Part shown: positions 11,048 through 31,171 of the stretch, in pieces
Layout of the letters: each line of letters starts with the position of its first letter
Numbering within the stretch: position 1 is the stretch's first letter
Origin: Candidatus Sulfotelmatobacter sp.
GTDB lineage: Bacteria; Verrucomicrobiota; Verrucomicrobiia; Limisphaerales; UBA11358
Direction: 5' to 3'
NCBI GenBank assembly: GCA_035503455.1
Contig: DATJTK010000170.1
Span: 65,383-129,382 of the forward strand
DNA: 64,000 bases
Translations under genes and position numbers: made by a program
Notes under the pieces: generated by a model
What the model saw: the letters and a program-made list of their open reading frames with translations, nothing else
The model's database searches: none
What the model was told of the DNA's origin: nothing

Positions 11048-12904
11048 ATGTGCGGCATCATCGGATACATCGGGAAAAAACCGGCGTCGCCCATCCTTCT
11101 GGAAGGATTGCGGCGGCTGGAATACCGCGGATACGACAGCGCCGGCGTGGCCGTGCTTCAGGAAGCCGAGCTTCTCGTTCGCAAAAAGAAGGGCAAAATC
11201 GAAACCGGGCTGGCAACGTTCCTCGAAGCAAACCCGGTTTCGGGAAGCCTCGGCATCGGCCACACGCGCTGGGCGACCCACGGCGTGCCATCCGACAGAA
11301 ATTGTCACCCGCACGTGGACGCATCCGGACACATTGCCGTGGTGCATAACGGCGTCATCGAAAATTATGAGGCGCTCAGAACGCGGCTGATGCGCGAGGG
11401 ACATCAATTCAAATCCGATACCGATACCGAAGTCCTGGCGCATTTGATCGGGGATTATTATGCAAAAGGAAAAAAACGCGGCGCGCGGAACAATGTTCTG
11501 GCTGATGCGGTTTGCCGGGCATTGCGGGAGGTGATTGGGACCTACGGAATCGCTGTGGTTTGTGCCGATGAACCGGACAAGATCATCGCCGCGCGGCGCG
11601 GTTCGCCGCTCATCATCGGCATTGGCAGAGGCGAACATTTTCTGGCCAGCGACACCAACGCCATCGTAGCGCATACAAAGAAGGTCGTTTACCTCAACGA
11701 TTATGACGTGGCTGCGGTGACGGCGGACGGCTTCGAAGTTTCAAATCTCGGCGCGGACACGGCCAAAACGCAAATAACTCGCCTTGAGTTCAGCCACGAG
11801 GACGCCGCCCGGGGTGAGCACCCGCATTTTATGCTCAAGGAAATCTTTGAGCAGCCGCGCACGATTGAGAATGCGTTGCGCGGACGGATGGATTTTAAGG
11901 GCGCCACGGCGAAATTTGGCGGCTTGAACCTGAGCGACGACGAATTGCGCTCGATAGGCCGCATCGTCATTGCCGCCAGTGGCACAAGCTGGCACGCGGC
12001 GCTGGCCGGCGAATATCTCATCGAGGAATTTGCGGACATTCCCGTGGAAGTGGAATTCGCGCACGAATTTTGCTATCGCAATGCGCCGCTGGAGGCGAAT
12101 ACGGTGTTGCTCGCGCTGTCGCAATCGGGCGAAACGGCGGACACGCTGGCGGCATTGCGCGAGGCGAAACGGCGCGGACGCAAAGCGCTGGCCATCGTGA
12201 ATGTGGTCGGCAGCGCGATTGCGCGCGAAGTGGACGGCGGCATCTACATGCACGCCGGGCCGGAAATCGCCGTGGCTTCGACGAAAGCGTTTGTTTCCAC
12301 ACTCGTCGTTTTGGCGTTGCTCGCCGTTTACCTGGGCCGCATGCGAGGCCTGCCGGCGACTACCGCGATGCAAATTCTTCGCGCGCTGGAATCATTGCCC
12401 GGACAGGTGGAACATATCCTCGCCCAAACGGCGGCGTTGAAAAAACTCGCGCGCAAATACGCCAAAGCCGGCGATTTCTTTTTTCTGGGACGCGGGCGCA
12501 TGTTTCCCATCGCGCTCGAAGGCGCATTGAAGTTGAAGGAAATTTCCTATGTACACGCGGAAGGCTATTCCGCCGCCGAAATGAAGCATGGACCGATTGC
12601 GCTGATCGACCGAAAAACGCCAACCGTTTTTCTCGCGCCCCGGGACGCGATGTATGAAAAGACTATTGCAAACCTGGCAATGATTCGCGCGCGCAAAGGC
12701 CCGGTCATCGCGGTGGCAACTGAAGGCGACAAGCAAATCAGGAAAATGGCGGATGACGTGATTTATTTGCCGCAAACGGCAGAACAGCTTTACCCGGTGC
12801 TGGCCGTCGTGCCGCTGCAATTGCTGGCGTATTACATCGCCATGGAACGCGGGTGCGATGTGGATAAGCCGCGGAATTTGGCAAAGAGCGTTACAGTGGA
12901 GTGA
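11048..12904 (+). CDS. glmS: Glutamine--fructose-6-phosphate aminotransferase
   Basis: MCGIIGYIG N-terminal nucleophile Cys, two SIS domains, C-terminal ...DKPRNLAKSVTVE. Confidence 0.98.
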   Translation: MCGIIGYIGKKPASPILLEGLRRLEYRGYDSAGVAVLQEAELLVRKKKGKIETGLATFLEANPVSGSLGIGHTRWATHGVPSDRNCHPHVDASGHIAVVHNGVIENYEALRTRLMREGHQFKSDTDTEVLAHLIGDYYAKGKKRGARNNVLADAVCRALREVIGTYGIAVVCADEPDKIIAARRGSPLIIGIGRGEHFLASDTNAIVAHTKKVVYLNDYDVAAVTADGFEVSNLGADTAKTQITRLEFSHEDAARGEHPHFMLKEIFEQPRTIENALRGRMDFKGATAKFGGLNLSDDELRSIGRIVIAASGTSWHAALAGEYLIEEFADIPVEVEFAHEFCYRNAPLEANTVLLALSQSGETADTLAALREAKRRGRKALAIVNVVGSAIAREVDGGIYMHAGPEIAVASTKAFVSTLVVLALLAVYLGRMRGLPATTAMQILRALESLPGQVEHILAQTAALKKLARKYAKAGDFFFLGRGRMFPIALEGALKLKEISYVHAEGYSAAEMKHGPIALIDRKTPTVFLAPRDAMYEKTIANLAMIRARKGPVIAVATEGDKQIRKMADDVIYLPQTAEQLYPVLAVVPLQLLAYYIAMERGCDVDKPRNLAKSVTVE

Positions 12905-12905
12905 T

Positions 12906-13286
12906 TTAAAATCCAAAATCGGTCTGCTCTGGTGGCGAGGCCGTGACTTTTAACGGTAATGAATCGGGTGGGTGTGGCTTGCCTTGTTCGTCATAACGGA
13001 TGAATTGCAACGACGCCATTACTTGGAGAGCCTCGCTGTCAGAATAGCCAGCTCGGTCCAAAACTGACGGTGATGAAATGCCGAGAAGATCAATTAGCTC
13101 TTCATGCGAAGATCCCTCTTGATCTCCACGCTCGAAGTATCGACAACAAGCTTTGAGTTGTTCAAACAAGTCGCCGTGGCAGGATTTTAAATCTGCCACC
13201 GCTTCACGACAGACCCGCTCAATGCGCTCGGCATAATCTGGCGGGAAATCATCGTCTGTGGGACTCATTTCAACACAAAAGGTCAC
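12906..13286 (-). CDS. Hypothetical small acidic protein (126 aa)
   Basis: ORF only. Translationally coupled (ATGA overlap 13283-13286) to the upstream 126-aa ORF. No motif recognised. More AT-rich than flanking genes by eye. Confidence 0.55.
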   Translation of the reverse strand: MTFCVEMSPTDDDFPPDYAERIERVCREAVADLKSCHGDLFEQLKACCRYFERGDQEGSSHEELIDLLGISSPSVLDRAGYSDSEALQVMASLQFIRYDEQGKPHPPDSLPLKVTASPPEQTDFGF

Positions 13287-13663
13287 GGTATAACCGATAA
13301 CCTGACCCGCTTCCCTTTGGATTCACAGTCGCCCGCGACTCGAATCGCCTCGTCAAGATCATGCAGGACGTCGGATCTGCGAGCCTTCCCCCCAAAAGTA
13401 AATGGCATCCCGCTGTTCGCCACTACATCACGAACCTTTGTCAGTGATGCAAGCAACCCTGACGCATTCGAAAAGGTCGGTTCCATCTCTTCGTCAAATT
13501 CGGACGCTGACACCGAATAATCGTGAAATGTTGTTAGCCTTGGAACCCCAACCTCATCGCAAATCTTGTCAAGCTCCTCGCTGAATCGGTAAAGCGCCCA
13601 CAAGTCTGAATTGGATTTGCCTCCCTCCAGACCTTCCTCAATTATCCAAAGTACGTTGCCCAT
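13283..13663 (-). CDS. Hypothetical small acidic protein (126 aa)
   Basis: ORF only. First gene of a two-gene minus-strand unit divergent from the MerR gene. No motif recognised. Confidence 0.6.
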   Translation of the reverse strand: MGNVLWIIEEGLEGGKSNSDLWALYRFSEELDKICDEVGVPRLTTFHDYSVSASEFDEEMEPTFSNASGLLASLTKVRDVVANSGMPFTFGGKARRSDVLHDLDEAIRVAGDCESKGKRVRLSVIP

Positions 13664-13731
13664 ACGCTAAAGATTATTTCGTAAGGTTGCGCTTGGTCAA
13701 GCGCGGTTGCGGTCCAGCGGCGCAAATGGGC

Positions 13732-13969
13732 GCATCTCAGTCCTTATGCACAGAATACATCGCCCCTAATGGGGCTGGGATTTTAATGATCATTTTAACT
13801 ACAAATACACCAGCCCTACGGGCTTTAAGCAGACGCCAAAGTAGCGAATCGGTCATTGCTGCTAAGCCCGTAGGGCTGGCGTATTTGTAGAGAACCGACC
13901 GAAAAAAAATTTACAAGCCCCGTTAGGGGCGGCGTATTCTGGCAAATACGTTCACAAAAACTGAGATGC
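13732..13969. repeat. 238-bp nested foldback (MITE-like) element
   Basis: Outer inverted repeat: GCATCTCAG (13732) / CTGAGATGC (13961). Middle: CAGAATACATCGCCCCTAATGGGG / CCCCGTTAGGGGCGGCGTATTCTG. Inner: CTACAAATACACCAGCCCTACGGGCTTTAAGC (13799-13830) / GCTAAGCCCGTAGGGCTGGCGTATTTGTAG (13861-13890). Confidence 0.7.
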
Positions 13970-14026
13970 AATTCCCGTGTGCATTTAAGAGAACCGTTCC
14001 CTGAGGCAAAGAATTAATATTCACAG

Positions 14027-14055
14027 TTGACAGTAACACTGTTAAGTGTTAGCAT
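14027..14055 (+). promoter_or_regulatory. Sigma70-type promoter with a MerR-style operator palindrome in the spacer; near-leaderless
   Basis: TTGACA (14027-14032), a 17-nt spacer, then TAGCAT (14050-14055). The perfect palindrome TAACACT-gtta-AGTGTTA (14034-14051) fills the spacer. Only 6 nt separate the -10 from ATG 14062. Confidence 0.6.
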
Positions 14056-14061
14056 GCCTCC

Positions 14062-14580
14062 ATGAACAGTGAGTTTTCCCTGGAAGAATTGGCAGTAGAG
14101 GTTCAGGCCTGGACCGAAAAACACCAGGTATTTCCCGCCAACGGCCAGGCTGCCGAGGAGATCACGGAACGAACCATCCGCTACTACCGAACCCTCGGCT
14201 TGCTGGACGCCCCCATCGGCAATTACGCAAAAACGTTTTCCAAAAAGCATAAATTGCAGCTCATTGCCATTCGGTTCTACCAGTCTCTCGGACTGCCGTT
14301 ACGCAAGATTCGTGATGAACTGTATGGGAAGAGCGAGCAAGATCTTGCTGCGCTGGAGCGGCAGATTGTGAAGCAGGGAGGAAAAGCAGCCGCGCTCGCC
14401 ATGCCGCTGGTCCCGCCGGTTGCCAGCGAATCGTGGTCGGCTATTCCTCTGGCCGGAAATTATCTGCTCATTTCACGAGACAACCAAAAACTGCCGCGAA
14501 CCATCGTGGACAAAATTAACCAACTGCTATTGTCTGTCGCGCCAGCGACGGACGACGCGGCAGCATCAGGAAGGAATTGA
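14062..14580 (+). CDS. MerR-family transcriptional regulator
   Basis: N-terminal winged HTH (FSLEELAVEV...ITERTIRYYRTLGLLDAP..HKLQLIAIRFYQSLGLPLRKIRDEL) with an insert in the HTH. Uncharacterised C-terminal ~70 aa. The stop lies 3 nt before the next gene. Confidence 0.8.
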   Translation: MNSEFSLEELAVEVQAWTEKHQVFPANGQAAEEITERTIRYYRTLGLLDAPIGNYAKTFSKKHKLQLIAIRFYQSLGLPLRKIRDELYGKSEQDLAALERQIVKQGGKAAALAMPLVPPVASESWSAIPLAGNYLLISRDNQKLPRTIVDKINQLLLSVAPATDDAAASGRN

Positions 14581-14583
14581 ATT

Positions 14584-16968
14584 ATGAATACGTCACGCAT
14601 ATTGCCGGTAACTCCGAAGCATTTCGGATTGTTTGCAATCATCGAATCCAAACGAGTTGTGCTCCCGCTTAAGGGGGTGGAGTGCGAATTTTTCGTCCAG
14701 GGTGGGGTCGTCGAAGTTTCAATGAGCCAGGTGTTTCGGCAGGAAAATCCGAATCCGCTCGATTGCCAGTACCAGTTTCCGTTGCCGGCGGATGCGTCGG
14801 TTTATTTCTGTGAGGCGGACATCAATGGACGACTTATTACGGCGCAGGTCAAGGAACGTGATGAAGCCCGGAAGATTGCCGACGAAAAAAAGGCTGAGGG
14901 GTTCCGCACCGCGCTCGTGGAATCAGAGAGGGACAATTTCTTCAGTCTGGAATTGGGCAACGTACAGCCTGATGACCTAATCATCGTGCGGTTGAAATAT
15001 TTCCAAACGTTGCGCGCGATTGCCGAAACCAAATCCATCGAAATCCCATTTTGTCCGGGCATTCGCTACATTCCTGGAAAGCCTCTGCTTCGCAGCAACT
15101 CCGGCAAAGGCGTGGTGGACGACACGAATGAAGTTCCCGACGCATCGCGCATCAGCCCGGTGAGAATCGATGCCGGTCACCCGGACGCTGCCTATGTGGA
15201 TGTTCGCGGGCACATGGACGCGGAGTTTCTGAATATGGCCAGTCTGGTTTCACCCAGCCACATCATTGATGTTTGCTCGCGAGAGGGTCAGGCGCAGGTC
15301 ACTCTCTCAAGCAAGGGCGAAGTGCCGGATCGTGATTTTGTCTTGAGATGGGAAGATCGTAATGCGGAATCGGTTGCGCCGCGCGCCTGGCTGCGGCAAA
15401 AAGGGAACGAAAATTATGCATTGATGGAAGTTCGCGCGCCGCGTCAAAATTCGGCCACGGAAACGGCGCTGGACTTCTATTTTCTCGTGGACCGATCGGG
15501 GAGCATGAGTGGTTTGAAATGGGAAAAGGCCGTGGAAGCTTTGCAAAGCTGCGTTGGTGTGCTCGGTCCCAATGACCGGGTCATGGTCACGATATTTGAA
15601 TCGAATTTCTGTGATTTCGCCGAACGGCCATTGCCGGTAAAAAAGATGCTTGCGGATCAGCAGTTCCAAAATTTAAAAGAGTTGCGGGCTGGCGGGGGAA
15701 CAGAGATGGCTCCTGCCCTGAAACACGTTCTTGACGTTGCTGCCAGGAACTCCGCGGGTCGTGACAAAAACCTTATTCTGATAACGGACGCGCAAATCGG
15801 AAATGAGTCCACGATCCTGGACCTGATGCGCGCAGCGCCGGACATGCCGGTCCATTGTTTTGGAATAGACATCGCTCTAAACGATGCGCTCCTGTTGGCC
15901 CTTGCCCGCCAGCAGGGTGGCGCCTTCCATTCGCTGAATCCGAACGACGATATTGCCAGCCTCGTGACTAAGCTCGGGAATACGCTGAGACAACCCGAAC
16001 TCCTGGACCTGCATTTGTCCGAGGGATGGGAAGTTGCGGATGCCAGAATTGCCAATCTATATTCCGGTCAGGTGGTTTACCTCAGCGCCAGGGCTGCGGG
16101 GGCGCTGCCCCTGGAATTAACTGCGCGGACGCCATCGGGCGAAGCCGTTTCATTTAAATTCAAAACGCAGACGCTGCCGCATGACGCGCCCTTTTTGCAT
16201 TGGCACAAAACTCGAATCCAGCGTTTGCTGGCTGAAAATCAAAACGCCGAGGCAATTCAACTGTCGGTCGCCGGCAATTTATTGTGTCGCCTGACTTCGT
16301 TTGTTGCCTGGGATGAATCGGAGAAAGTTGCCGTGTCGCAGCATGATTTGGTACAACCGGCTCTGCTGTATGCGCCTCCGGCAGGAGCAGGCGGGCTTTT
16401 TGCTGAAAGAACTCGGTCTCGTGGGGTTCCTGACGATATTCGTTTCTGCATGGAGAAATTGAGCACGGACGCCAAAGAATCCATTTGTGACTTTGAGTTG
16501 GGATCCCGTCCCCTTCGAAAAGATGCTTCCGTACGAACTCAGTGGGGCCAATTCGTCGCGGTTTGCTTGAGACTGTCAGGAGACGACTGGAACACTCCAT
16601 TTCAAGCCATTTTTCTATGGCACGAAAACGCCTCGCCGGCAGAAATCAAAGGAATTGAGATAACGCTGCTGAAATTAACCCGGCAACTCAAGCTATGCGC
16701 GGATTTGATCCAAATACTCGACACCAGCGGGGGTGGCTTAATTCATCAGCTTCGCCAGTGGCGGCTTCAATTCCGAATCATGTTGCAACGTCAGAGGTCA
16801 AATGGTGAGTGGCAGGATTTCGAATCGATCTGCCGGGCAGTCGGAAGCGTTGACTCATCAACGCCACCGGAGCGGCTGGCTGAATTGAAATCTGAAGTCC
16901 AGAAGAAGGCCGTGGAATTGCTCAAACAATTCGCCGGGAGCTTGCCGCTTGCAAGGGCCTCAACGTGA
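14584..16968 (+). CDS. Cytoplasmic VIT-domain + von Willebrand A (vWA) protein with unassigned ~300-aa C-terminal region
   Basis: VIT-like N-terminus (LPLKGVECEFFVQGGVVEVSMSQVF...YQFPLPADASVYFCEADINGRLITAQVKERDEARKIADEKKAEG). vWA MIDAS motif DFYFLVDRSGSMSG...GGGTEMAPAL...LITDAQ. No signal peptide or TM segment. Confidence 0.85.
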   Translation: MNTSRILPVTPKHFGLFAIIESKRVVLPLKGVECEFFVQGGVVEVSMSQVFRQENPNPLDCQYQFPLPADASVYFCEADINGRLITAQVKERDEARKIADEKKAEGFRTALVESERDNFFSLELGNVQPDDLIIVRLKYFQTLRAIAETKSIEIPFCPGIRYIPGKPLLRSNSGKGVVDDTNEVPDASRISPVRIDAGHPDAAYVDVRGHMDAEFLNMASLVSPSHIIDVCSREGQAQVTLSSKGEVPDRDFVLRWEDRNAESVAPRAWLRQKGNENYALMEVRAPRQNSATETALDFYFLVDRSGSMSGLKWEKAVEALQSCVGVLGPNDRVMVTIFESNFCDFAERPLPVKKMLADQQFQNLKELRAGGGTEMAPALKHVLDVAARNSAGRDKNLILITDAQIGNESTILDLMRAAPDMPVHCFGIDIALNDALLLALARQQGGAFHSLNPNDDIASLVTKLGNTLRQPELLDLHLSEGWEVADARIANLYSGQVVYLSARAAGALPLELTARTPSGEAVSFKFKTQTLPHDAPFLHWHKTRIQRLLAENQNAEAIQLSVAGNLLCRLTSFVAWDESEKVAVSQHDLVQPALLYAPPAGAGGLFAERTRSRGVPDDIRFCMEKLSTDAKESICDFELGSRPLRKDASVRTQWGQFVAVCLRLSGDDWNTPFQAIFLWHENASPAEIKGIEITLLKLTRQLKLCADLIQILDTSGGGLIHQLRQWRLQFRIMLQRQRSNGEWQDFESICRAVGSVDSSTPPERLAELKSEVQKKAVELLKQFAGSLPLARAST

Positions 16969-16981
16969 CAGCGCGCGCCCC

Positions 16982-17032
16982 CGCGACGTCAACGATCCGC
17001 GGAATCTGGCTAAGAGCGTGACGGTCGAATAA
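16982..17032 (+). pseudogene. Orphan fragment encoding the last ~17 codons of a glmS gene
   Basis: Translates in frame to RDVNDPRNLAKSVTVE*. The resident glmS ends CDVDKPRNLAKSVTVE* at 12854-12904. 37/51 nt are identical by hand alignment, with differences mostly at synonymous positions. Confidence 0.7.
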
Positions 17033-17240
17033 ACTGAAGCAGCATTAGCGCAGTCGCCAGGGATAAGACCTTAAGCTTTGCGGCATAATTCGGAGTGTCC
17101 GCCAGCGACCGCCCTTCGTAGCATACGCGCCATGTACCAGCACGGCGCGGTTTTTTCACCGCACGCGGAGCGCCGTGGCTGCGGCTGCGATGGTCGGCGT
17201 ACTGGGAAAAATCGTTTAAAAAAAGCTTGCGTAGTGCACG

Positions 17241-17268
17241 TATATGCAGCTATATGCAAGTATATGCA
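17241..17268 (+). promoter_or_regulatory. Three perfect TATATGCA direct repeats at exactly 10-bp spacing overlapping the methyltransferase start
   Basis: TATATGCA at 17241, 17251 and 17261. Possible -35 TTGCGT (17227-17232) and -10 TATATG (17251-17256). ATG 17264 lies inside the third repeat. Confidence 0.5.
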
Positions 17269-18688
17269 TTCGGCGCCCGCTAAAACTTTATTCTCATCTG
17301 CGCAAGTTGCCGAACGCGCCGGTATCCATAAGGATACGCTGCTGCGATGGCTACGCCAGGGCGTTGTACAGGAACCAAAGCGCGATAGGCATGGTTGGCG
17401 GATATTCACGCCGGAAGAAGCGGCCCGAATCGAGGCAATTGCGAAATCCGAACAACCACCGTCTGACTCACCGTTCGAGCTTCGCGACGCTCCGGGGCCA
17501 CCTGCTGCCATGGAGAGGCTGGGGAGAATCGACTGGGATTTTCGAGAGGCCAAAACAAGCTATCTGACGCATGGCCTGCATCCCTACCCGGCCAAATTCA
17601 TACCCCAAATTCCTAACGCCTTGATCCAAGAATTGTCCGACGTTGGAAGCACGGTAGGTGACATTTTCTGCGGCAGCGGCACAACACTTGTCGAAGGGAT
17701 GCTTCTGAAGCGTAATGTGGTGGGCGTTGACGCTAACCCATTGGCGTGCCTAATCTCCGCAGCGAAGACCGCCCGTCTGCAGGACGGTGACAAGGATTTG
17801 CTTATGCAGCTGGCGCAACGTTCCGGCCACCTTGCCGACGAATTTGCCACCGATGTCACCCAAACACTCTTTCCTGTTGCGAAATTTGTCTCAAAGGCTC
17901 CCCGCCCTGCCGGAAAGGCTATCGATTTCTGGTTTGAACCATTTATAACAGAAGAATTGGCCGAAATACTTTCCTGGTGTCGAAAATTGCCAACTGAATC
18001 AGCTCGGAATATAGCCCTCGCCTCGTTTTCAGCGATCGTCGTAAATGTTTCCCGTCAAGACTCAGACACTCGGTACGTCCGCCGCGCAAAGAAGCTTTGC
18101 CCTGGCGATGCGTTCCGGCGATTCGCACAGGTTTTGTCTGAAAATGCAAACGCATCCGAAAGATTTACAGACATTTTGGAGCCAAACATTTCGTGCAAAA
18201 TATTCCACGCGGACCTGCTTTCTTCGCCTGAAATTCCAATGCTCGACTTGGTTGTGTGCTCGCCGCCATACCCAAATGCATTCAGTTACCACCTATACCA
18301 CATGACTCGAATGGTGTGGCTCGGCATGAATCAGCCGGAGTTCAAAAAAAGGGAGATTGGCAGCCACCGGAAGTTCAGCAGCAAGGGAAGGAATGGCGCG
18401 ACCATCGAGACATTTCAGAACGAAATGGTTTCAATCTTTGGCTGGCTAAAAAAAATGATTCGCCAGGGTGGCCATGCTTGCTTTGTGGTCGGTAATTCAA
18501 TCATTAGAGGCCAGGCATACGACAATGCAATGGTCCTGACGAACGCGGCAAGCGTGAACGGTTTTACCCAGATTGCGGCGCTTACGCGGAATCTCAAAGA
18601 CACAGCCAAGGCGTTTAATCCAAAGATTGGCAAAATAAAAACGGAAAAAGTTCTTATTTACCAAAATTCAAGCACAAGCTACCTATGA
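17264..18688 (+). CDS. DNA methyltransferase M1 (alpha-class, SPPY motif IV; N4-C or N6-A) with N-terminal MerR/Xis-type HTH
   Basis: HTH: LFSSAQVAERAGIHKDTLLRWLRQGVV..GWRIFTPEE. Motif X/I: HPYPAKFIPQ...GDIFCGSGTTLVEG. Motif IV: DLVVCSPPYPNAF, about 200 aa later. ATG 17264 preferred over TTG 17078. Confidence 0.85.
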   Translation: MHSAPAKTLFSSAQVAERAGIHKDTLLRWLRQGVVQEPKRDRHGWRIFTPEEAARIEAIAKSEQPPSDSPFELRDAPGPPAAMERLGRIDWDFREAKTSYLTHGLHPYPAKFIPQIPNALIQELSDVGSTVGDIFCGSGTTLVEGMLLKRNVVGVDANPLACLISAAKTARLQDGDKDLLMQLAQRSGHLADEFATDVTQTLFPVAKFVSKAPRPAGKAIDFWFEPFITEELAEILSWCRKLPTESARNIALASFSAIVVNVSRQDSDTRYVRRAKKLCPGDAFRRFAQVLSENANASERFTDILEPNISCKIFHADLLSSPEIPMLDLVVCSPPYPNAFSYHLYHMTRMVWLGMNQPEFKKREIGSHRKFSSKGRNGATIETFQNEMVSIFGWLKKMIRQGGHACFVVGNSIIRGQAYDNAMVLTNAASVNGFTQIAALTRNLKDTAKAFNPKIGKIKTEKVLIYQNSSTSYL

Positions 18689-20289
18689 ACAAACTAATCA
18701 CATGCAGGATGAAACCATATATCCAGCCGTTCGAACGAACGTTGGCACTTCAAGAATTAGAAGTTTTGGCCCGCGCCACGCCACAACCGACGATGGCCAT
18801 TGATGAGGAACCTGAATGTTTTCAAGTCAGATCAAATAAACCAGGGCAGGCTCTCGCGCGGGAACTAGCCTTTTGGGAAGCGGTTTGTGATGGCAGGACG
18901 ATTCACACAACTCAATCTTTGCGCGAATCTACTGTCAACGTCGTAAGGAATGGCATTCCGCTTGATGACCTCATGGCCCAGCTGCCATTCAAAAATGAAA
19001 TATCGTTGCCCAATCGCCGCTGTCTTCGGTACGGGACGCACGGCCTTCATGAATATCGCGGAAAATTTTTCCCGCAGCTGGTCCGTTCTTTCATAAACAT
19101 CGCAAAAATCCCAATCGGCGGCTTAGTCGCCGACCCATTTTGCGGCAGTGGCACAACCGGAGTGGAAGCGATCTTAGCCAATCGCCGAACCATTGGCATG
19201 GATTTGAATCCGCTTTCTGTGTTTATGGCAAGAACCAAGTGTCAACTACTCGGTGTCAAATACAGTGACATGGAAGAAGCCTATCTGCAGGTTCGAACTC
19301 AACTATTGGCGCCGCGCAATAAGACCCGAGGCGACTATTGGGTCTCAAAATTGTCACAGGTTGATCAAGATTATCTAAAAATCTGGTTCGACGCTGCAAT
19401 CTTGGATGAACTAGACTTGATCGCAACTTGTATCAGCGAAAGAACAAAGGGGGCAATACACGATTTTATGCTCCTTTGCTTGAGCAATGTCTTACGGCAA
19501 GTGTCGTGGCAGAAAGTGGACGACCTAAGAGTTAGACGAGAGTTGAAAGCAGTGGACGAAATTGACCCGATTAAAGAGTTTCTGGAAGAGCTCGGCCGTT
19601 CCGTCCGCCTTGTGCTTGCATTTTTGCGCCAAGAGGGCCGGGTCGCCTCTGTCAATGCCGAGATATCCGAAGGCGACAGCAGACAAATTTCAAAGCGGTG
19701 GGAAAAGTGGGCGGGAAAGATCGACGCTGCTATTACATCCCCACCTTATGCAACCGCTTTACCTTATTTGGACACAGACCGGTTAAGCCTCTGCTTCCTC
19801 GGGCTGTTGCCACGCGATAAACATCGCGCGCTTGACCACGAGATGATCGGCAATCGTGAAATTGCCGATGCGGTCAGAAAACGTTACTGGCAAGAATTTT
19901 CAGCAAAAAACCACGACTTGCCGTCTTCGGTTTGTGATTTAATCTCAAAAATTCAGCGGCTTAATTTGAAAGCAAACGTTGGCTTTCGACGGCGCAATTT
20001 ACCCTCTCTCCTTTTTAAATATTTCTACGACATGAAAAAGGTGTTTGCTGAGTTGGACGCAGTGCTTAAACCGGGGGCAAGTGCATTTTTTGTGGTTGGG
20101 AACAATCACACTATCGCTGGCGGCCAGCGGGTCGACATTGAAACGGTCGAGCTGCTTCAAGATGTGGCTAAAAGCGTGGGATTGGAAATTGTTGAGACAA
20201 TCGCAATGGACATGTTGATTTCAAGAGACATTTTTCGGAAAAATGCGATCGACTCTGAAAGTATCCTTCATTTTCGGAGACGCAGTTAA
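18685..20289 (+). CDS. DNA methyltransferase M2 (alpha-class, SPPY motif IV)
   Basis: Motif I: VADPFCGSGTTGVEAIL..IGMDLNPL. Motif IV: DAAITSPPYATALPY. ATGA overlap with M1. Confidence 0.85.
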   Translation: MNKLITCRMKPYIQPFERTLALQELEVLARATPQPTMAIDEEPECFQVRSNKPGQALARELAFWEAVCDGRTIHTTQSLRESTVNVVRNGIPLDDLMAQLPFKNEISLPNRRCLRYGTHGLHEYRGKFFPQLVRSFINIAKIPIGGLVADPFCGSGTTGVEAILANRRTIGMDLNPLSVFMARTKCQLLGVKYSDMEEAYLQVRTQLLAPRNKTRGDYWVSKLSQVDQDYLKIWFDAAILDELDLIATCISERTKGAIHDFMLLCLSNVLRQVSWQKVDDLRVRRELKAVDEIDPIKEFLEELGRSVRLVLAFLRQEGRVASVNAEISEGDSRQISKRWEKWAGKIDAAITSPPYATALPYLDTDRLSLCFLGLLPRDKHRALDHEMIGNREIADAVRKRYWQEFSAKNHDLPSSVCDLISKIQRLNLKANVGFRRRNLPSLLFKYFYDMKKVFAELDAVLKPGASAFFVVGNNHTIAGGQRVDIETVELLQDVAKSVGLEIVETIAMDMLISRDIFRKNAIDSESILHFRRRS

Positions 20290-21497
20290 TAGTAGCCCCA
20301 TTGCTTTTTTGAGTTCCGCACGCGGTTTGTGCACAAAGCCTGATAACGCGCGAAGTCTGTACTGCCGGCCGGGACAATCTCCACATAGTAATCATAACCG
20401 GCCTTGCCGTCTGCGAGTTCGATCCTCAAAATATCGCCGACCGCGCCTGCGTCGCGCAACGCCGCACTACGTAGCCGGAAATCACTCTTGTCCGGCCAGG
20501 TCATCATGTTAACCGGTGCAATTTGTCCGCCCAACCGGATCTGGACTGCATGCCGGTCCCATTTTCCTGGCTTGCCAGGGTCTTGCGTGAAAAGTTTCCG
20601 CCAGCCCCAAAATGCCGGATTCGCGTCGCGGGCGGCCAACGGGATAAATATTTCTGGCGAACGCTTGGAAGCTCCTAAAGTCACTTGGCCGGTGCCCGCA
20701 TCAGTCTGTTGTAAAGTCATAACAAACCCACATAATCCTTTTCCTTCTGGCTGGAGTATCTTAAGTGCCAGCTTTTCCTCGATGGGTTCGGCTCGGGCAG
20801 CTGGTTTGACGCGCGTAGCTCCGAAAAGCTTCTTGACTCCCCTTTTTATTGCCGATGTCTGCTGGATGACCTTCACAGCTTCGTTCGTTCGCTGAATTTC
20901 TGCTTCGGTCGGGACATAACCGTTTTCGTGCAACTCCTTAATCAATTCCGTCGTTAACGGCTTTACCGTCTCGTGTTTCGGATTTGTCCATTCATCCAAA
21001 AGCGCTTCTAGGGCAAGAAAGAATTTTTCGTCGTCCGGATTTTTCCTGTCCAGTTGGACGTGAACGAAAGCTTCGTAATTTGTGAACAGTCCACCCTCGG
21101 TGAGATTCCCGGAACCAACAAAGCATTCTGCTGCATTTTCATTCGAAAAAAGGAATATCTTCGGATGAAAAGTCGGCCTTTGGGCGGTTTCGTTGTGCAA
21201 AACCCAAACCCCTCCACTCGACCCAACCGCCACCAATAAATCTGCCAAACCTTCCGCACTGGTCACGCCATGATCAATTCCGACCGAAATCTTGGTTGTC
21301 CCGTGTGTGATGAATGACCCTAACGGCTTGGCCAGATGCTTCACGCCTGAGCGTTTAACGAACGCCACCGCAGCGCGAAATACCTTCCAACTTGGTTTTT
21401 TCAGATTTTCGGCAAGAAAATCGCCAAGCCTTTGCTCACCCTCAGGATGATGAATCAGCTGAATCATTTTGAGGGACCGCGATTCAATGTGCGCCAT
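20286..21497 (-). CDS. PLD-superfamily restriction endonuclease with C-terminal B3-like DNA-binding domain (BfiI/NgoFVII-like)
   Basis: Single HKD-type motif TFHPKIFLFSNENAAECFVGSGNLTEGG in the N-terminal half. The C-terminal half (..SDFRLRSAALRDAGAVGDILRIEL..) resembles the B3/EcoRII-N-like recognition fold of BfiI. Convergent with M2, with stop codons sharing TTAA (20286-20289). Confidence 0.75.
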   Translation of the reverse strand: MAHIESRSLKMIQLIHHPEGEQRLGDFLAENLKKPSWKVFRAAVAFVKRSGVKHLAKPLGSFITHGTTKISVGIDHGVTSAEGLADLLVAVGSSGGVWVLHNETAQRPTFHPKIFLFSNENAAECFVGSGNLTEGGLFTNYEAFVHVQLDRKNPDDEKFFLALEALLDEWTNPKHETVKPLTTELIKELHENGYVPTEAEIQRTNEAVKVIQQTSAIKRGVKKLFGATRVKPAARAEPIEEKLALKILQPEGKGLCGFVMTLQQTDAGTGQVTLGASKRSPEIFIPLAARDANPAFWGWRKLFTQDPGKPGKWDRHAVQIRLGGQIAPVNMMTWPDKSDFRLRSAALRDAGAVGDILRIELADGKAGYDYYVEIVPAGSTDFARYQALCTNRVRNSKKQWGYY

Positions 21498-21860
21498 GAC
21501 AGGATTCGCAAGTTACGTAATTTTCGCCGAACGTACAACTATTGATTTATTCAAGCCCATGTCCAGGATTTCAATAGGTCATAAAAGGGGCAGAGATTAA
21601 GCGGGAAAAAGTGGGAAATCCGAATGTTGTGCCCACAGCTAAAGCGGCGTAAAAACTGTTTCAGTGAAATTGAAGCAGGCAATTGCAAAATTTCTTCTGA
21701 CGTATTGTAGTATTTGTGTCAGCGAGCGGTCAAAAACCAGCCAAGGTGTTACGGATTTTTTTGGCGTCAAAGTTTTGGCCGTGGGCAAAGAGGCGGCTGC
21801 GAGCGCGAGGAACAATGCGACATTCCACGATAACGATAATGTAGCTTTTGTTGCTTTTCC

Positions 21861-21920
21861 TGTTGCCGAAATGTTGCCGACTAAATCATTGACAATCAAC
21901 AATGTTGCCGATGTTGCCGA
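21861..21920. repeat. Four copies of TGTTGCCGA in two adjacent pairs
   Basis: TGTTGCCGA at 21861, 21872, 21903 and 21912, read directly. Confidence 0.8.
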
Positions 21921-22110
21921 TTTCCAGAGCATCATCAAACCATAACCACTAGAGGGTCGCCTCGCCATGGTCGCCACGAAGTGTCCTTCAATCTCCACTT
22001 CGCGGCCTTCGCGTCCTTTGCGTGAGAATTATTCATTTCCGAAAATCACGGGTGCGGTTTCTGTACGCTGTTCCATCTTCCATCCTGCCTAAGCCCGCGA
22101 ATCCCCCTTC

Positions 22111-22310
22111 CGAAATTAAATCACCCCTTAATTTCGCCTTCATCAGATTGAGCTTTTTTCCCGAAAAACCGCTCGTCGTAAATTAAGCAGAATCTTCAAA
22201 TTTCCAAACAAAACCGCATCATTTTACCCCCTTAACATTGAAATTAAGCATTTCGTTTACCCAAATTAAGCCCGCAAAACCATAGCATACCCATTTTTAC
22301 TTAATTTGGG
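22111..22310. repeat. Cluster of AAATTAAG(C) motifs and inverted repeats built from them
   Basis: CGAAATTAA-N8-TTAATTTCG (22111-22136). AAATTAAGC at 22180, 22241 and 22263. CCCAAATTAAG (22260-22270) pairs with CTTAATTTGGG (22300-22310). Confidence 0.7.
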
Positions 22311-22999
22311 CCAGGGGGAGGGGGAATCGTTCTCGCTTGCCGCGCCGTAGTCAGACGAAGGCGGGTCCTCGCCTGCCCACCGTAGCTTATGAACCCATTT
22401 GGCGAGATGCAGATATTGATTTGATATCCGAAAATGATTTTTCACACGGGCTCTTTAGCAAAGGCGGGTCCTCGTCCTCGAAAATTACGGTTCGGCATGT
22501 TCGAGGTTCAATGTTCGATGTTGTTCAGATGTCTAAAAAAACTTCCGCGTATTTAGTGCTTCCAAAAAACGAAATAAAAAAATTTCTGTTCCTAAATCCC
22601 CCCGCCAACATTGAACCTTTTTGGGGTTCCAAATGTAGTTCTTGTACTGCGCCCTGCATCTGAGAAATTCGAATTGTATCAAAGTCATGAACGAACCAGG
22701 AACGAGTGAAACTTCCCATGTAGGGCAGGCATCCTGCCTGCCGGTTAACACGGCTTCCAGCCGCGTGTTCCCAACAATCCAAAAATCCACTTATCCATTT
22801 ATCCAACCACCCGAATTGTCCCCACGTTCCGCCTTGATGGGGGGACAATTAGCCCTGACCCTCTCAAGAACCCTGATTTTCCGCACATCTTTTACGCCGA
22901 TGGCGTTTGCCGGGCCGTCTTTTTCAGTGATTCGAAGCGCTTTTGGCGAAAAAACCGTGTTTAAAACCCGTTTTTTTGATCATCGGAAGGGACAATTCC

Positions 23000-23527
23000 C
23001 TATTGAACCACGCTCAACTGCCCGGTGCCGGCCACCATCCGAAAGAGCATCACCAGCAGCGGAAACACCGCCGCCGAGCAAATGTTTCCAAGCAGTGACG
23101 CCAGCAAACTGCGAGACAGAGACGGCGCCGCCAGCGGCGATTTGCGAGATGAAATAAAACGACAAATGAGGTAAATCAGCGATCCTTCGAGCAACACGAT
23201 CAAACCTTCGCCCGCCACGGCCATCACCGTTGGTTGCATTCCGTAGGTGAGCCAAAGCCAGCCCAAAAAAATAGGATACGTCAGCAGGTGCATGCCCATC
23301 AGCCAAAGAATAAACAGGCGCGGACGCCGCCACCGCCGAAGTATCAAACTGATGCAAACCGCTTCCAACAAAATGGCTAGAACCACGGCAGTGATAACAA
23401 AAGGAGATGGACCGGGTTCCACGACCGATACCGGAATGGGATCGGCCTTCACGCAGGCCGTTGAAAACAACAACGCCGCCACCCATCCGGTATGGCGCAC
23501 ACCATTGTTGCGAATGGCGCCGGTCAT
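23000..23527 (-). CDS. Hypothetical integral membrane protein
   Basis: 175 aa with 4-5 hydrophobic helices. Divergent from the HEAT-repeat gene. No motif recognised. Confidence 0.6.
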   Translation of the reverse strand: MTGAIRNNGVRHTGWVAALLFSTACVKADPIPVSVVEPGPSPFVITAVVLAILLEAVCISLILRRWRRPRLFILWLMGMHLLTYPIFLGWLWLTYGMQPTVMAVAGEGLIVLLEGSLIYLICRFISSRKSPLAAPSLSRSLLASLLGNICSAAVFPLLVMLFRMVAGTGQLSVVQ

Positions 23528-23641
23528 GGTAAAAACCCTGATTCTTTGCCGCTCGCATGTAAAGCGAAAATTCTAAAAAAACTTGCCAATCCCTTGCAAA
23601 GAGAGCAAAAGTTGGAACCACAACAATCGCGAACGCCGCCC

Positions 23642-26600
23642 ATGAAGAAACCCTGGGTCACTCTGTCCTGGCTCATCCTGGCGCTGGTTGCAGGCGGGGC
23701 ATTCCTTTATGCCATCCTCCCGTCCGAACCGTTCGCTACGGGCGAATCGTCCGTGGTTAAAACGCGGCAGGCCCTTCGTCAGCAGGGGTTCAAGACCGAT
23801 GTCACTAACTTTGATTTTTCCACGTCGCCGGATATGCGCGCCCGCGAGGCGGCCATAAAGGCCACGAGCCCGAGCCGCAATAACCCGTCTTTTCTCGTTG
23901 AGCCGGACCTCATGGAAGTCGCAACTCCACATTCTGCGGTGGTCGTATGGCAACAGTCCGCGCTGAAGGTCCCGGATCCAGAGGAATCGGGCAAAAGTGA
24001 TATGATTCCCTGGGATGACTTCCGACAGTTTGTCGGCGCCCAGCGGACGCGAGCGGACGCAGCCTGCCAGGCAATATTGTCAGGACCCATCGCCTTCAAC
24101 CTTGACGCACGAGCGGGAGATTTCATGTTGCTTCCTCATCTCGCCGTGCTGAGGAATCTGGCCTTTCTGCTCTGCGGCAGGACGATTTTGGCGCTCCATG
24201 ATGGCGACCATGCCGACGCCTGGACAAATCTACTGGCCGCCACGCGCCTGGTCACCGCCTGGCAACCGGAACCCGCTAAAGTCTCGCACAGCACCCGGTT
24301 CGACATCATGCATCTGGTTTACGATCTGACCTGGCAGGCTCTTCAAACCAACGATTGGTCCGATAACGAACTTGCCCAATTGCAAGCCGAATGGGAGTCC
24401 GCAAATTTCCTGACCAATTTGTCGGAAGTCCAGGCATTCATGGGCGCCAGCGATGTGAAGATGTTTGAGCATGACGAACTATCCTCTCAAAGGCCGCGCG
24501 CGCGATTCAACCAAATGCCGCCCCCGTCATTCAACGAATTTCTGAATCAGGCGCTGCGCGATCCATTTTCCCTGTGGCAACAGATGCATTCCCGCTGGAG
24601 CCAGCGCGCCTATTTTCACGGCGGCATGTATGAGGACGAGCGGCGCCTCTTGCTTTTTTATCGCGACCGGCAGGTGGAATATCGCAACGCCATTCAGGCG
24701 TCCACCTGGATGCAAATGCGCCAAATGCCGGGTGTGACCACTGAAGTTTTTTTTCAGCCCAACTATCCTGGTTGGGGACTTTTCGAAAATGCTCTCAACA
24801 TGCGCAGGATGAATACGCGCTTCCAGGGGCAAGGCGCCAGTTTTCTCGGGCGCGCCGCCGAAGCCGAAACTGAGCGCCGAATCATCGTCACCGCTCTCGC
24901 GCTTGAACGCTATCGCGAAAAAAACGGCGCATATCCGGATTCCTTGCAATCCCTCGCTCCAGAGTTCCTGCAGGCCGTGCCGGTGGACTTCATGAACGGC
25001 CAGCCCCTGCACTACCAAGCGAGTAACGGCGGCCATTTTCTCCTTTATTCCGTGGGCCTGGATTGCGTGGACAATGGCGGGAATCTCCAAACAAATGCCA
25101 ACAATATCGATTTCTACTACTCTGGCCGCCGGGAACAACCGTCTCCAGGCTATGATATCGTTTGGCCCTATCCCGCATCCGCCGATCAAGTTGCAGCGGC
25201 CCGAAAGAAAGAATCCGAAGCGTGGGCGGAAGAGATGGCAAAGGTCCAGGCAAACGGGCAAGCCCAGGAGCAGCGCGCTCAGCAGGATGCGGAAGAAATG
25301 AGACAAGCGGCCATGAAAAAGCTCCTCGCCGAGAAACCGTCGCTTGGACAGGAACCGGTCTATCAGGGTGTACCGCTCAGCGCCTGGGTGATCAAAGCCG
25401 GCCAATTCGATTACAATGGCGCCCCGGAAGATGCGGTTGCCGCCATCCGCGCGATCGGTCCAAAAGCTGTCCCGTTTTTGCTGGAATGGATGCCGCGTCC
25501 CGGGGCCGAACAACCGGTGGACGGCGCTCCCGGCTGGGACGGCGTCGAAATCGCTTGGTGGGCATTGGGCAGCCAGGGCAAGTCTGCAATTCTCGCTCTC
25601 GCTCACCTGCTCAGTTTGCCACAGAAAACCATGGATGATTACTCTGTTTGGACGGAAAGCGCCAAGGCAATCTCCTATTTGGGACCCGACGCCATAACTC
25701 CCATGTTGACGGTCGCCACCAATATGGAAGGACAACACTTTATGTGGGAATTGCTTGCCAATTTTCAAAACCTGGGGACCAACGGCGCCCCAGCCGTTCC
25801 TGCGATCGTTCACTGGGCCAATGATTCGGATTATTGGGTTCGCGAGGGCGTTGTCACCGCATTGGGAGGCATCGGAGAACGGCCTGATTTGGCCGTGCCG
25901 GTTTTGACAAACATCCTGGAGCACGATTCCAACGGGATGGTGCGCCGCGACGCCGCGGGTGCCCTGGGCTCTTTTGCGAACGATTCGGATGCCGTATTGC
26001 CTCTCTTAAGCAAGACGCTTAAATATCCCGATTGGCAGGCCCGCGAGGGAGCGCTATCCGGTCTTGGTAAGATACAGAATAAGCCGGGTGTGGTGGTTCC
26101 TCTCATTGCTCCATTTTTATACGCCGACAACAATGTCATTCAACGAAGCGCAGCCTACGCATTGCGTGACCTGGGCAATCCCGCCGGCTATCGCGTGTTA
26201 TTGAACGCCCGCAATGCTCCCAGTGGGTGGCCTGGTATCGGCGACATCATTTATCAGGTCCAGCAGGAAATTGAGACGACGAACTGGGAACAGTCGCCGT
26301 TACGAGAGGCTCGCGTCCCGGGAATCCTGGCTGCCAAATGGTCCTGGGATACAAACACCGCGCCGGACGAGGAAAAAATGGTCGAATATTTGGCCAACAC
26401 CAATGTCACCGGCGCAGGCTCGCGGACGATGGCGGATTTGTTGATGCCAAAGCAAGTCATTACCGGCAACGAACCCGAAGAGCTTACCTATGAATTTCCC
26501 GTGAGCTATGATCGGACAACCAACAATGGATTCTGTCTATTATTGGACGCCGACACCAATCCGGCGAGCCTGTATGCCCCTGACAGCGGGGCCGCTATCC

Positions 26601-27043: not shown

Positions 27044-27056
27044 TCACGTGAGCAAC

Positions 27057-27719
27057 TCAACGATCAAATGGCGGCCTGCGAAGAAATTTTCGGATGGAGA
27101 TGAAAACACGCGGAAGCATCGTATAGATTTCTACAGTCAATTTATCACCATCAAGCGCGTCGAACGGACGACCAAAGAACCTTTTACAAATGTTGAACGC
27201 CAACGCTTCGCCATGCGTCACGAGGTCCTTATTGCCGGATTTGTTGAGCACCTCCGATTCCTCCTCCAAAAGTGTGCCTTCGTTTAGAACCACGCCGCGC
27301 TCGGCGTCGCCAAAGGCTTTGCGCCGCAAGACTGACTTTTCGTACAACGCGTATGCGAAATAATTTGTGCTGCTCTCCAGATCAAACGCAAATACATCCC
27401 CCGAGGGAAACAACGACACAAAGCGCTGAATCAATTCGTTGTTTTCGTGTTCGACCGTCCCGATGAGATCGGGGAGCCCGGCAATAATAGCCGCCCCTGG
27501 CTTGGTTGGATCTTCCCCATAGGCGCCGATGCAAAAACTTCGCCTTCGATCAATTGCGTCGAGTCCGCTTTCGAGAAAGACATACGAAGTACTCCAAGTC
27601 ACCAGGATTCGCATCTTGTCGAGGATCGCTCTGCCCGCTGTCTCGTCATGCTTCATCTCCGTGCCGAGATAGCCGGGCTGGCGCTCATTGGCAATGATGC
27701 AACAGATCTTCCATCCCAT
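27057..27719 (-). CDS. Hypothetical protein (220 aa)
   Basis: ORF with coding-like composition. No motif recognised. Confidence 0.6.
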   Translation of the reverse strand: MGWKICCIIANERQPGYLGTEMKHDETAGRAILDKMRILVTWSTSYVFLESGLDAIDRRRSFCIGAYGEDPTKPGAAIIAGLPDLIGTVEHENNELIQRFVSLFPSGDVFAFDLESSTNYFAYALYEKSVLRRKAFGDAERGVVLNEGTLLEEESEVLNKSGNKDLVTHGEALAFNICKRFFGRPFDALDGDKLTVEIYTMLPRVFISIRKFLRRPPFDR

Positions 27720-27851
27720 ACGTAATCCTAGTGATTCATGGCGTTTTGCCAGGGTATGCTCGCCCGAATCGTAACCTATTGAACCGTGCGGATCAATTCG
27801 TTATATCCTGGAAACGGGTGGAACGCCAGATGCTATCCATCCTGATTACTT

Positions 27852-28271: not shown

Positions 28272-28336
28272 ACTCGACACCGGACCCTTGGTGGAGAATT
28301 TTTCTACCCCGCCTGTGTTTTATTCGATCGAACATA

Positions 28337-30278: not shown

Positions 30279-30377
30279 AGGAAATAGACCAGACGAACGG
30301 CCTGGGCTCACGGTCTCTGCCCATTGAATTGTCGAAATTCGACTGACAAACGCAGGCAAGACCCTGTCCTCCAGGAA

Positions 30378-31111: not shown

Positions 31112-31119
31112 ACCATTTC

Positions 31120-31148: not shown

Positions 31149-31171
31149 CAAGCGTTACCTTCCCCGCCAGT

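Follow-up and report, generated by a model that had tools for sequence, protein, structure and literature searches.

Positions 14,027 to 16,968 of a 64-kb stretch of DNA deposited as Candidatus Sulfotelmatobacter sp. (contig DATJTK010000170.1 of assembly GCA_035503455.1; the whole 64,000-nucleotide stretch analysed is referred to below as the window) are occupied by a promoter and two closely spaced genes on the plus strand, which together form the subject of this study. The first gene (14062..14580) encodes a MerR-like protein of 172 residues and the second (14584..16968) a cytoplasmic, ITIH1/VWA5A-like protein of 794 residues that carries a VIT and a vWA domain. The TGA stop codon of the former (14578-14580) and the ATG of the latter (14584) are separated by 3 nt, the list of open reading frames (ORFs) in the window agreeing exactly, in lengths and gap, with the two ORFs described in an earlier note made from the letters of this DNA.

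Database searches retrieved more than 5,600 relatives of the VIT-vWA protein. At three homologues located on unrelated contigs, a MerR_1 gene encoding 171-172 residues ends 1-3 nt 5′ of the VIT-vWA gene, and every other neighbouring gene differs. A genome scan yielded 80 loci (108 relatives), nearly all labelled Verrucomicrobiota, with representatives of subdivision 3/Pedosphaera, Chthoniobacter (Chthoniobacterales/Chthoniobacteraceae), Opitutaceae, Verrucomicrobiales and Methylacidiphilales. A MerR homologue was found on the same strand directly 5′ of the VIT-vWA gene at 77 of the 80 loci, a contig edge accounting for two of the three others, and the gap between the two genes ranged from -4 to +12 nt in most cases. 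Thus, the conservation of the two genes as neighbours, on which the earlier note had made its proposal depend, is borne out. Apparent overlaps of -420 to -520 nt, which would have suggested MerR-VIT fusions, were longest-ORF artefacts involving different reading frames. Clustering of all flanking ORFs revealed no third conserved partner, only the MerR-like and VIT-vWA families recurring (76-80 loci); the next most common family occurred at 14 loci and all remaining families at five or fewer. The 14-locus family was itself considered as a third partner and rejected, its example ORF (L007, 741-1286, minus strand) overlapping the MerR gene (825-1343) and being read as an antisense shadow ORF. Synteny was missing even between copies of the pair that are 79-88% identical, and some metagenome-assembled genomes (MAGs) carry two copies. 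The pairing of the two genes is far beyond chance, and the pair is a real, conserved and self-contained cassette. Its nearest-neighbour taxonomy concordance (80%, versus 34% expected by chance) suggests mainly vertical descent. Public annotations go no further than "MerR family regulator/HTH protein" for the one gene and "VIT and VWA domain-containing protein" for the other, and the literature searched for VIT/vWA/MerR combinations returned only papers on Dictyostelium Vwa1 and PARP4, with no description of a MerR plus VIT-vWA system, in line with the earlier note, which knew of none that had been characterised.

Pfam searches on the 794-residue protein placed a VIT domain at residues 30-139 (E=3.5e-25) and a vWA domain at residues 297-449 (VWA, VWA_2 and VWA_3; VWA_3 with E=3.4e-16 over residues 299-449). 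The MIDAS (metal ion-dependent adhesion site) motif, DRSGSMSG, corresponds to residues 303-310, and D303, S305, S307, T373 and D402 are invariant across 53 homologues. A hydropathy test, with no dedicated predictor, revealed neither a transmembrane (TM) segment nor a signal peptide, the KD19 maximum of 1.61 falling on a core strand of the vWA domain. The VIT domain, the vWA domain with an intact MIDAS and the lack of a signal peptide or TM helix had all been read correctly in the earlier note. In the AlphaFold2 (AF2) model, of overall confidence (pLDDT) 80, the VIT beta-sandwich spans residues 29-154 (14668..15045, plus strand as all features of the protein; strands with pLDDT 74-93) and is followed by a signature loop, PFCPGIRYIPG...DDTNEVPDASRISP...HPDAAY (residues 155-203; 15046..15192), by hybrid sheets lying between the VIT sandwich and the vWA domain, by the vWA domain with its complete MIDAS (residues 296-468; 15469..15987), and by a beta/helical "stalk" that completes an ITIH1-like fold (residues 469-589, or to about 581 in the AF2 model; 15988..16350). 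No other block of the protein is as conserved as the signature loop, with its 85% mean identity and 35 of its 49 columns at least 90% conserved, yet AF2 leaves it unplaced (pLDDT 31-43 for residues 159-190). The conserved core ends near residue 592, alignments being conserved to P592. Foldseek retrieved ITIH1 (6fpy) as the best match (E=2e-29 over ~620 columns) and ArnB-type vWA proteins as the second-best class (E~1e-14), and the VIT-vWA portion of PARP4 was the closest solved structure by sequence, its VIT domain matching with E=1e-14. With a VIT domain followed by a vWA domain bearing a MIDAS, and with an ITIH-type fold, the protein is a member of the VIT-vWA (ITIH-like) superfamily.

Beyond the core, a disordered linker (residues 590-650; 16351..16533; pLDDT 28-37; 16% identity) leads to a C-terminal alpha-helical bundle (residues 651-794; 16534..16965; AF2 helices 653-786 with pLDDT 84-95; 26% identity). 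This C-terminal domain (CTD) is family-specific, occurs in short and long homologous forms that have the motif C..G..DW..KAI..W..ER in common, and found only 13 weak or related matches among 1.84e9 representative sequences. Pfam searches on 72 C-termini returned one GTPase variant and otherwise nothing. The some 300 C-terminal residues that the earlier note could not assign are now placed in the ITIH1-like stalk, the disordered linker and the helical bundle; the housekeeping domain that the note thought might surface in this region was found neither by Pfam nor by the representative-sequence searches. In rare relatives (1 of 72 genome loci), the CTD is replaced by GTP_EFTU+EF-G_D2, IF2_N+EF-G_D2 or HATPase_c, and these relatives retain the upstream regulator gene. 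The GTPase-type CTDs (GTP_EFTU plus EF-G domain 2, one with IF2_N) were seen in P0106, P0108, P0115, P0117, P0119, L015 and L208 and make a curious link to translation, given the apparently leaderless first gene described below; a lone HATPase_c, reminiscent of anti-sigma-type kinases, was seen in P0078 and P0085.

The regulator is matched by the Pfam model MerR_1 over residues 33-87 (E=6.6e-6, 26.6 bits, for a cutoff of 21.6). The conservation profile and the AF2 model outline a winged helix-turn-helix (HTH; residues ~7-87) with a conserved "PANGQ" insert and a helix at residues 92-109, after which the C-terminal half of the protein consists of a variable, disordered linker (residues 108-123) and of a small conserved module, made of a hairpin (126-138) and a helix (146-159), with the motif E.W..PL..fLLvSR. 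The post-HTH helix is, in this model of pLDDT 73, a single helix of 18 residues, shorter than in CueR or MerR, and the linker after it is not conserved. Foldseek retrieved CueR, TipA-N, SkgA, NmlR and GlnR with probabilities of 0.96-0.99, a PDB profile search gave marginal matches to MerR-family proteins, including TnrA, along with spurious matches to RNase A, and none of the NCBIfam MerR, CueR, ZntR and SoxR equivalogs matched. The C-terminal module matched no family or structure in NCBIfam, PDB profile or Foldseek searches. Neither a conserved cysteine nor a ligand pocket was apparent in the conservation profile or the AF2 model, so that the effector site that is a hallmark of the MerR family (cysteines or a drug pocket) is absent. 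By its N-terminal winged HTH, the protein belongs to the MerR family, of which it is an atypical member. Swaps of the CTD in the VIT-vWA partner leave this C-terminal module of the regulator conserved; should the two proteins touch, the contact would thus be with the constant core of the partner.

The strongest feature of the locus lies upstream of the MerR-like gene and had been overlooked in the earlier note, whose interval opens, at 14027, on the first T of the -35 hexamer. It is a conserved operator combined with a putatively leaderless promoter, and it ties the regulator to a predicted autoregulation of the operon. In the window, the sequence reads TTGACA-GTAACACTGTTAAGTGT-TAGCAT-GCCTCC-ATG. 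On the plus strand, a perfect-consensus -35 hexamer (TTGACA, 14027..14032) and an extended -10 element (TG-n-TAGCAT, 14047..14055), which ends 6 nt 5′ of the ATG, were recognised by a promoter scan as a 10/12 match with a 17-nt spacer and the TG present. Overlapping the -35 and the spacer is a 17-bp palindrome, TGACAGT-AAC-ACTGTTA (14028..14044), which differs by one mismatch from the family consensus TGACAGTAACACTGTCA. Alignment of the upstream regions of other loci revealed a near-invariant 18-mer, TTGACAGTAACACTGTCA, with a 7-N3-7 palindrome, TGACAGT-N3-ACTGTCA, over the -35. Across 149 unique operon promoters, no position of TTGACAGTAACACTGTCA, those of the -35 included, falls below 90% conservation, a TG-extended -10 comes after a spacer of 17 nt, and 124 of the promoters have 34-36 nt between the start of the -35 and the start codon.

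The palindrome was found once in the 64-kb window when up to three mismatches were allowed. At up to two mismatches, it precedes the MerR gene in 61 of 79 protein-selected loci, with three other sites in 872 kb, two of which are second copies of the operator in unusually long gaps between the MerR and VIT genes (L066 and L075). These second operators (L066, 5831-5847; L075, ~5851-5867) are inverted and lie between genes separated by 174 and 217 nt, an arrangement suggesting that some lineages have the VIT-vWA gene under an operator of its own. Exact matches in metagenomes preceded a MerR homologue in 93 of 120 cases, the remainder being low-GC, intragenic chance 18-mers or truncations at contig ends. 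With these off-target matches explained and no second operator in the window, a wider regulon was rejected, and the operator is essentially exclusive to the MerR-like/VIT-vWA operon. The palindrome is the putative binding site of the MerR-like protein, presumably as a dimer. Its dyad is as expected for a MerR-family promoter, but the 19-20-bp spacer that is the other hallmark of such promoters is absent, the spacer here measuring 17 nt between a -35 and an extended -10 that are both close to consensus. Because the -10 ends about 6 nt 5′ of the start codon, the predicted transcription start falls on that codon or beside it, which would yield a leaderless regulator mRNA. A Shine-Dalgarno-like sequence for the VIT-vWA gene (GGAAGGA, 14569..14575, plus strand), read from the sequence, sits inside the last codons of the MerR-like gene, which points to translational coupling of the second gene to the first.

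The operon reaches beyond the Verrucomicrobiota. A tblastn search of PLSDB returned a match in the 11.85-Mb replicon of Nonomuraea gerenzanensis (Actinomycetota), where a VIT-vWA protein of 814 residues, collinear with residues 1-601 of the window protein (E=4e-63), keeps the MIDAS and the loop motif "RY.PG.P...DT..VPDASRISP". Directly 5′ and joined to it by an ATGA overlap is a gene encoding a 274-residue MerR_1 protein (40.1 bits) related to the window regulator (BLASTP E=2e-13; hhalign 97%). The upstream sequence, CTGTCAtTGACAGTGtaatagTGACAGTGTCAtcgtggtcctATG, has the same TTGACA and TGACAG half-sites in another arrangement, the ATG lying 36 nt from the -35. A "Verrucomicrobiota-specific" operon is thereby ruled out, that restriction being an artefact of exact-peptide scanning. 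The neighbours of the Nonomuraea copy are genes for a ferritin-like (Dps-type) protein, a trehalose phosphatase, PhoX and a methyltransferase. The ferritin-like gene (L212, 1580-2164) is divergent from the MerR-like gene and lies 81 bp away, so that the TGACAG operator region is common to both promoters; co-regulation of the operon with a stress gene is possible in this single case.

What is firmly supported, then, is a self-contained operon that comprises a dedicated MerR-family regulator, a dedicated operator and a cytoplasmic ITIH/VWA5A-like MIDAS protein. As to its working, we lean, if only slightly, towards an autorepressed operon for a MIDAS-dependent cytoplasmic protein-binding hub, with coupled translation, a leaderless regulator mRNA and possibly a feedback by partner titration. 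A dimer of the MerR-like protein would bind TGACAGT-N3-ACTGTCA over the -35 and repress its own promoter; the already optimal 17-nt spacer and the position of the site over the -35 argue for a repressor and not for a DNA-twisting activator of the MerR type. The regulator would be made from a leaderless mRNA and the VIT-vWA protein translated by coupling through the Shine-Dalgarno sequence in the last regulator codons, such that both proteins would be produced together. The VIT-vWA protein would serve as a metal-dependent hub whose MIDAS captures an acidic residue of a ligand, and its C-terminal bundle may gate or diversify the output of the hub, as has been proposed for Dictyostelium Vwa1 and human VWA5A. 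Free VIT-vWA core may further support repression, which a cellular ligand engaging the VIT-vWA protein would lift, supply thereby matching demand. This titration loop is put forward tentatively, as less likely than not; it was considered because the regulator has no ligand pocket and only a small, conserved, protein-like module, and because the operon is its sole detectable target. The hub may act in stress and proteostasis or in conflict.

Several points weigh against this picture. Binding of DNA by the MerR-like protein, repression, the transcription start site and the protein-protein contact are all predictions from sequence. The AF2 model of the regulator is of only moderate confidence (pLDDT 73), and its Foldseek matches have weak E values (~0.02). 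GTG accounts for about half of the start codons downstream of the 149 promoters; GTG starts on leaderless mRNAs are tolerated in some phyla and poorly so in E. coli. The genome census relied on exact peptide patterns, so that the prevalence and phyletic range it gives are lower bounds, and conservation across phyla is represented by one actinobacterial genome. An operon that targets only itself needs an output, and none can be named. Finally, partner titration leaves unexplained why the pair in the window sits in a defence-rich hotspot.

This hotspot begins after glmS. A single glmS gene is present in the window (11048-12904), and its 82-89% identity to sequences from Verrucomicrobiae/Limisphaerales marks the window as verrucomicrobial; the "Candidatus Sulfotelmatobacter" (Acidobacteriota) label of the 131,921-bp source contig was accordingly rejected, glmS and the operon both being closest to Verrucomicrobiae/Limisphaerales. 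Soil "SMAG" labels among the matches (Pseudomonadales, Acidoferrum, Methylomirabilota) look equally unreliable. Neither a duplication of glmS nor att-like direct repeats flanking the island were found in the window, and the "glmS-bracketed" insert of the earlier note was not confirmed; the pair nonetheless lies between glmS and rplB in DNA that varies from strain to strain. In three sister genomes with glmS genes 88-89% identical to that of the window, this interval (12905-31598, rplB starting at 31599) carries different cargo, namely an Avs4/STAND-like protein of 1789 residues with PhD/PIN genes in the first, JetD-like and NucS-like genes in the second, and a leucine-rich repeat (LRR) protein with a fatty acid (FA) hydroxylase in the third. 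The MerR-like/VIT-vWA pair is absent from the site in all three. Genes shared with the sisters (DUF6928, an ABC-2 transporter and PIN, then rplB at 31599) resume only near 27 kb, which makes the 12.9-27 kb segment strain-specific. It contains two orphan ORFs, the pair, a restriction-modification (R-M) system and a HEAT-repeat protein. The R-M-like module, which has the lowest GC content of the region (0.47-0.51), consists of two N6/N4 methyltransferases, one at 17078-18688 that bears an N-terminal HTH of MerR/HTH_17 type (residues ~71-122) and one at 18685-20289, together with a convergent PLD-family nuclease, weakly NgoFVII/BfiI-like (20286-21497), and is the R-M system, putatively of Type IIS, that the earlier note had reported beside the pair.

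From this setting, the earlier note had proposed an accessory, possibly anti-phage module. "Accessory" is apt for this genome, in which the pair adjoins an R-M system in strain-variable, defence-rich DNA filled in the sisters by Avs4-like, JetD-like and PhD/PIN cargo. As a family property, an anti-phage role was not supported. No match to either protein was found in PADLOC-DB v2 at E<=0.01 or in PHROGs, no NCBIfam equivalog matched apart from a sub-threshold sortase-target model, and no close relatives were found on viral contigs or plasmids. Around 37 other loci, the 148 flanking genes formed a heterogeneous, mostly housekeeping set in which any one defence family accounted for two at most; these loci thus do not repeat the defence-rich context of the window. 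Nor did clustering of the flanking ORFs reveal a MoxR, an NTPase or any other third partner conserved near the pair.

Among the alternatives to the autorepressed hub, a novel anti-phage, abortive-infection or other conflict system survives best, and keeps some modest chance of being right. The vWA domain and its MIDAS would sense an invader protein, the MerR-like repressor would keep the system silent until then, and the variable C-terminal module, be it the helical bundle, a GTPase or a GHKL ATPase, would be the effector or switch. Such a system would fit the hotspot beside the R-M genes, where the sisters carry Avs4/STAND-like, JetD-like and PhD/PIN genes instead, as well as the lack of synteny even between closely related copies and the two copies in some MAGs, the fast-evolving, swappable C-terminal module, and the tight autorepression of a strong promoter, which is common among costly systems. 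The PADLOC and PHROG searches, the mostly housekeeping flanks of the 37 other loci and the absence of the pair from viral contigs and plasmids all argue in the opposite direction, and so does the Nonomuraea copy, set among ferritin-like, trehalose phosphatase and PhoX genes. The common form of the protein, moreover, has no recognisable effector (nuclease, TIR, protease or pore), its core is strongly conserved and not diversifying, and its taxonomy concordance suggests mainly vertical descent. A more novel reading is a cross-phylum surveillance system, in which a VWA5A/PARP4-like MIDAS hub would capture a foreign or damaged macromolecule and thereby release the MerR-like repressor, leading to a burst of its own synthesis, with the swappable C-terminal modules setting the output. 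We regard it as doubtful. Improbable, in turn, is a classical MerR sensor of a small molecule, metal or redox state that would activate by promoter distortion, the VIT-vWA protein being a detoxifying or protective effector. The MerR-family HTH and a palindrome placed, like those of merO and PcopA, in the -35/-10 region are what such a sensor would display, but the spacer is of 17 nt where MerR-type activation needs 19-20 nt, the protein offers no conserved cysteine pair or ligand pocket and has a short helix followed by a variable disordered linker, and just the weak MerR_1 HTH model matched, with no NCBIfam equivalog. Hardly credible is the reading of the VIT-vWA protein as an adhesin, exported or at the cell surface, of sortase-target or BatA type, with an incidental regulator next to it. 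The model TIGR03788 for a "marine proteobacterial sortase target" does align with residues 35-583, and the closest plasmid-borne relatives are annotated as sortase targets, but the score of 271.5 bits is far under the 551.65 cutoff, hydropathy reveals no hydrophobic segment at either terminus and no sign of a signal peptide, of a TM segment or of a sorting signal at the C-terminus, the C-terminus is modelled as a soluble helical bundle, and linkage to the regulator is near-absolute.

Other features of the window were recorded alongside. Directly after glmS, on the minus strand (12906-13663), are two overlapping acidic ORFs of 126 residues each, possibly small immunity- or antitoxin-like orphans, which had no match in Pfam, NCBIfam, PADLOC or PHROG. 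Upstream of the operon lies an inverted repeat resembling repetitive extragenic palindromes (REP-like; 13799-13890) with 27-nt arms that are 96% complementary (CTACAAATACACCAGCCCTACGGGCTT / AAGCCCGTAGGGCTGGCGTATTTGTAG); related units made of a GC hairpin and GCGTATT occur in the same intergenic region at ~13760-13780 and ~13918-13950, and a 26-mer of the repeat has no further copy in the window. Further downstream, on the minus strand (29542-30359), the gene for an ABC-transporter ATPase beside the ABC-2 permease is broken up, two overlapping ORFs (29853-30359 and 29542-29901) taking its place. A sister genome (L209) has one ABC ATPase gene of 245 codons at this place, and the split is likely a frameshift, a pseudogene or an assembly error. 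A single ORF of 4,226 residues occupies 12.7 kb of the plus strand (41264-53944). Rfam searches on the window returned only two tRNAs.

The component families of the operon are known, whereas their obligate pairing, the near-invariant operator and the putatively leaderless promoter have no description in the literature searched, and these features span the Verrucomicrobiota to one actinomycete. VWA5A/BCSC-1, the vault module of PARP4 and Dictyostelium Vwa1 have no defined molecular function, and a compact bacterial operon would provide a testable handle on such proteins through its dedicated regulator, defined cis-element, invariant MIDAS and ultra-conserved loop. The regulator is in itself a MerR-family protein that departs from the defining promoter logic of its family. 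The locus also calls for caution in "guilt-by-association" defence calls, since the defence-island context of the window does not extend to the family. Were the surveillance reading true, the operon would represent a new class of conflict or stress system as well as a prokaryotic counterpart of, and a genetic handle on, the eukaryotic intracellular VIT-vWA proteins.

When set beside known regulators, the MerR-like protein has the winged HTH of canonical MerR, CueR and SoxR and, like them, a dyad operator between the -35 and -10; it differs from them in its 17-nt (not 19-20-nt) spacer, in having no metal- or drug-binding C-terminus, in the shortness of its putative dimerisation helix and in being a predicted repressor. 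A functional analogy is offered by small MerR-family repressors without a ligand pocket that act on promoter palindromes and are set by a protein partner, as in the HspR-DnaK and TnrA/GlnR-glutamine synthetase pairs, HspR and its partner being products of one operon. The nearest PDB matches of the regulator by sequence or fold include TnrA, GlnR and CueR, and its operator, at 17 bp, is of the same length as the TnrA box. The E values of 0.05-0.5 nonetheless speak of analogy and not of membership in these families, the putative partner here is a VIT-vWA protein, and the half-sites (TGACAGT-N3-ACTGTCA) differ from the TGTNA-N7-TNACA of TnrA/GlnR and from the HAIR element of HspR.

On the side of the VIT-vWA protein, the vWA-MoxR ternary and TerY-type conflict systems likewise employ cytoplasmic vWA proteins in which the core is constant and the C-terminal domains vary (PMC7159879), but no MoxR, VMAP, iSTAND, FtsH, kinase or phosphatase partner is conserved beside the pair; the survey of vWA conflict systems by Kaur et al. 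2020 mentions neither VIT nor MerR (PMC7159879). Archaeal ArnA/ArnB (8s05, 5a8j), which belong to the second-best fold class (E~1e-14), offer the example of a cytoplasmic prokaryotic vWA protein in a gene-regulatory complex; ArnB differs in being archaeal and in having an FHA/Zn-ribbon partner under phosphorylation control and no VIT domain or MerR partner. ITIH1 (6fpy), the best structural match, has the VIT domain, the vWA domain with its MIDAS and the stalk in common with the window protein, from which it differs in being secreted, processed and esterified to chondroitin sulfate, in having no helical CTD, and in sequence (13% identity). PARP4 (vault PARP), the best sequence match among solved structures (E=1e-14), is intracellular, as the window protein appears to be, but the latter is devoid of the BRCT, PARP catalytic and MVP-binding domains, and its signature loop (residues 155-203) fails to align with PARP4.

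The nearest counterparts in layout are the intracellular VWA5A/BCSC-1 and Dictyostelium Vwa1, in which VIT, hybrid and MIDAS-bearing vWFA domains are followed by a helical/VITpt2 stalk, a long disordered loop and a helical CTD, the latter predicted to dock on the vWFA domain as an autoinhibitor (PMC10539598). Bacterial sequences have been placed in the same intracellular continuum, as clade B1 (PMC10539598). The window family is bacterial and stands apart from these proteins in forming an operon with a MerR-like regulator and its operator, the F-box/SOCS-box E3 receptors that are the partners in eukaryotes having no counterpart for the bacterial pair. Human VWA5A and Vwa1 have the same layout as the window protein and, like it, no signal peptide (PMC10539598); the CTDs are likened here by their layout. 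By hydropathy and AF2 layout, the window protein thus displays the features of the VWA5A/Vwa1-type clade, namely a core, a disordered loop and a helical CTD in a protein without a secretion signal.

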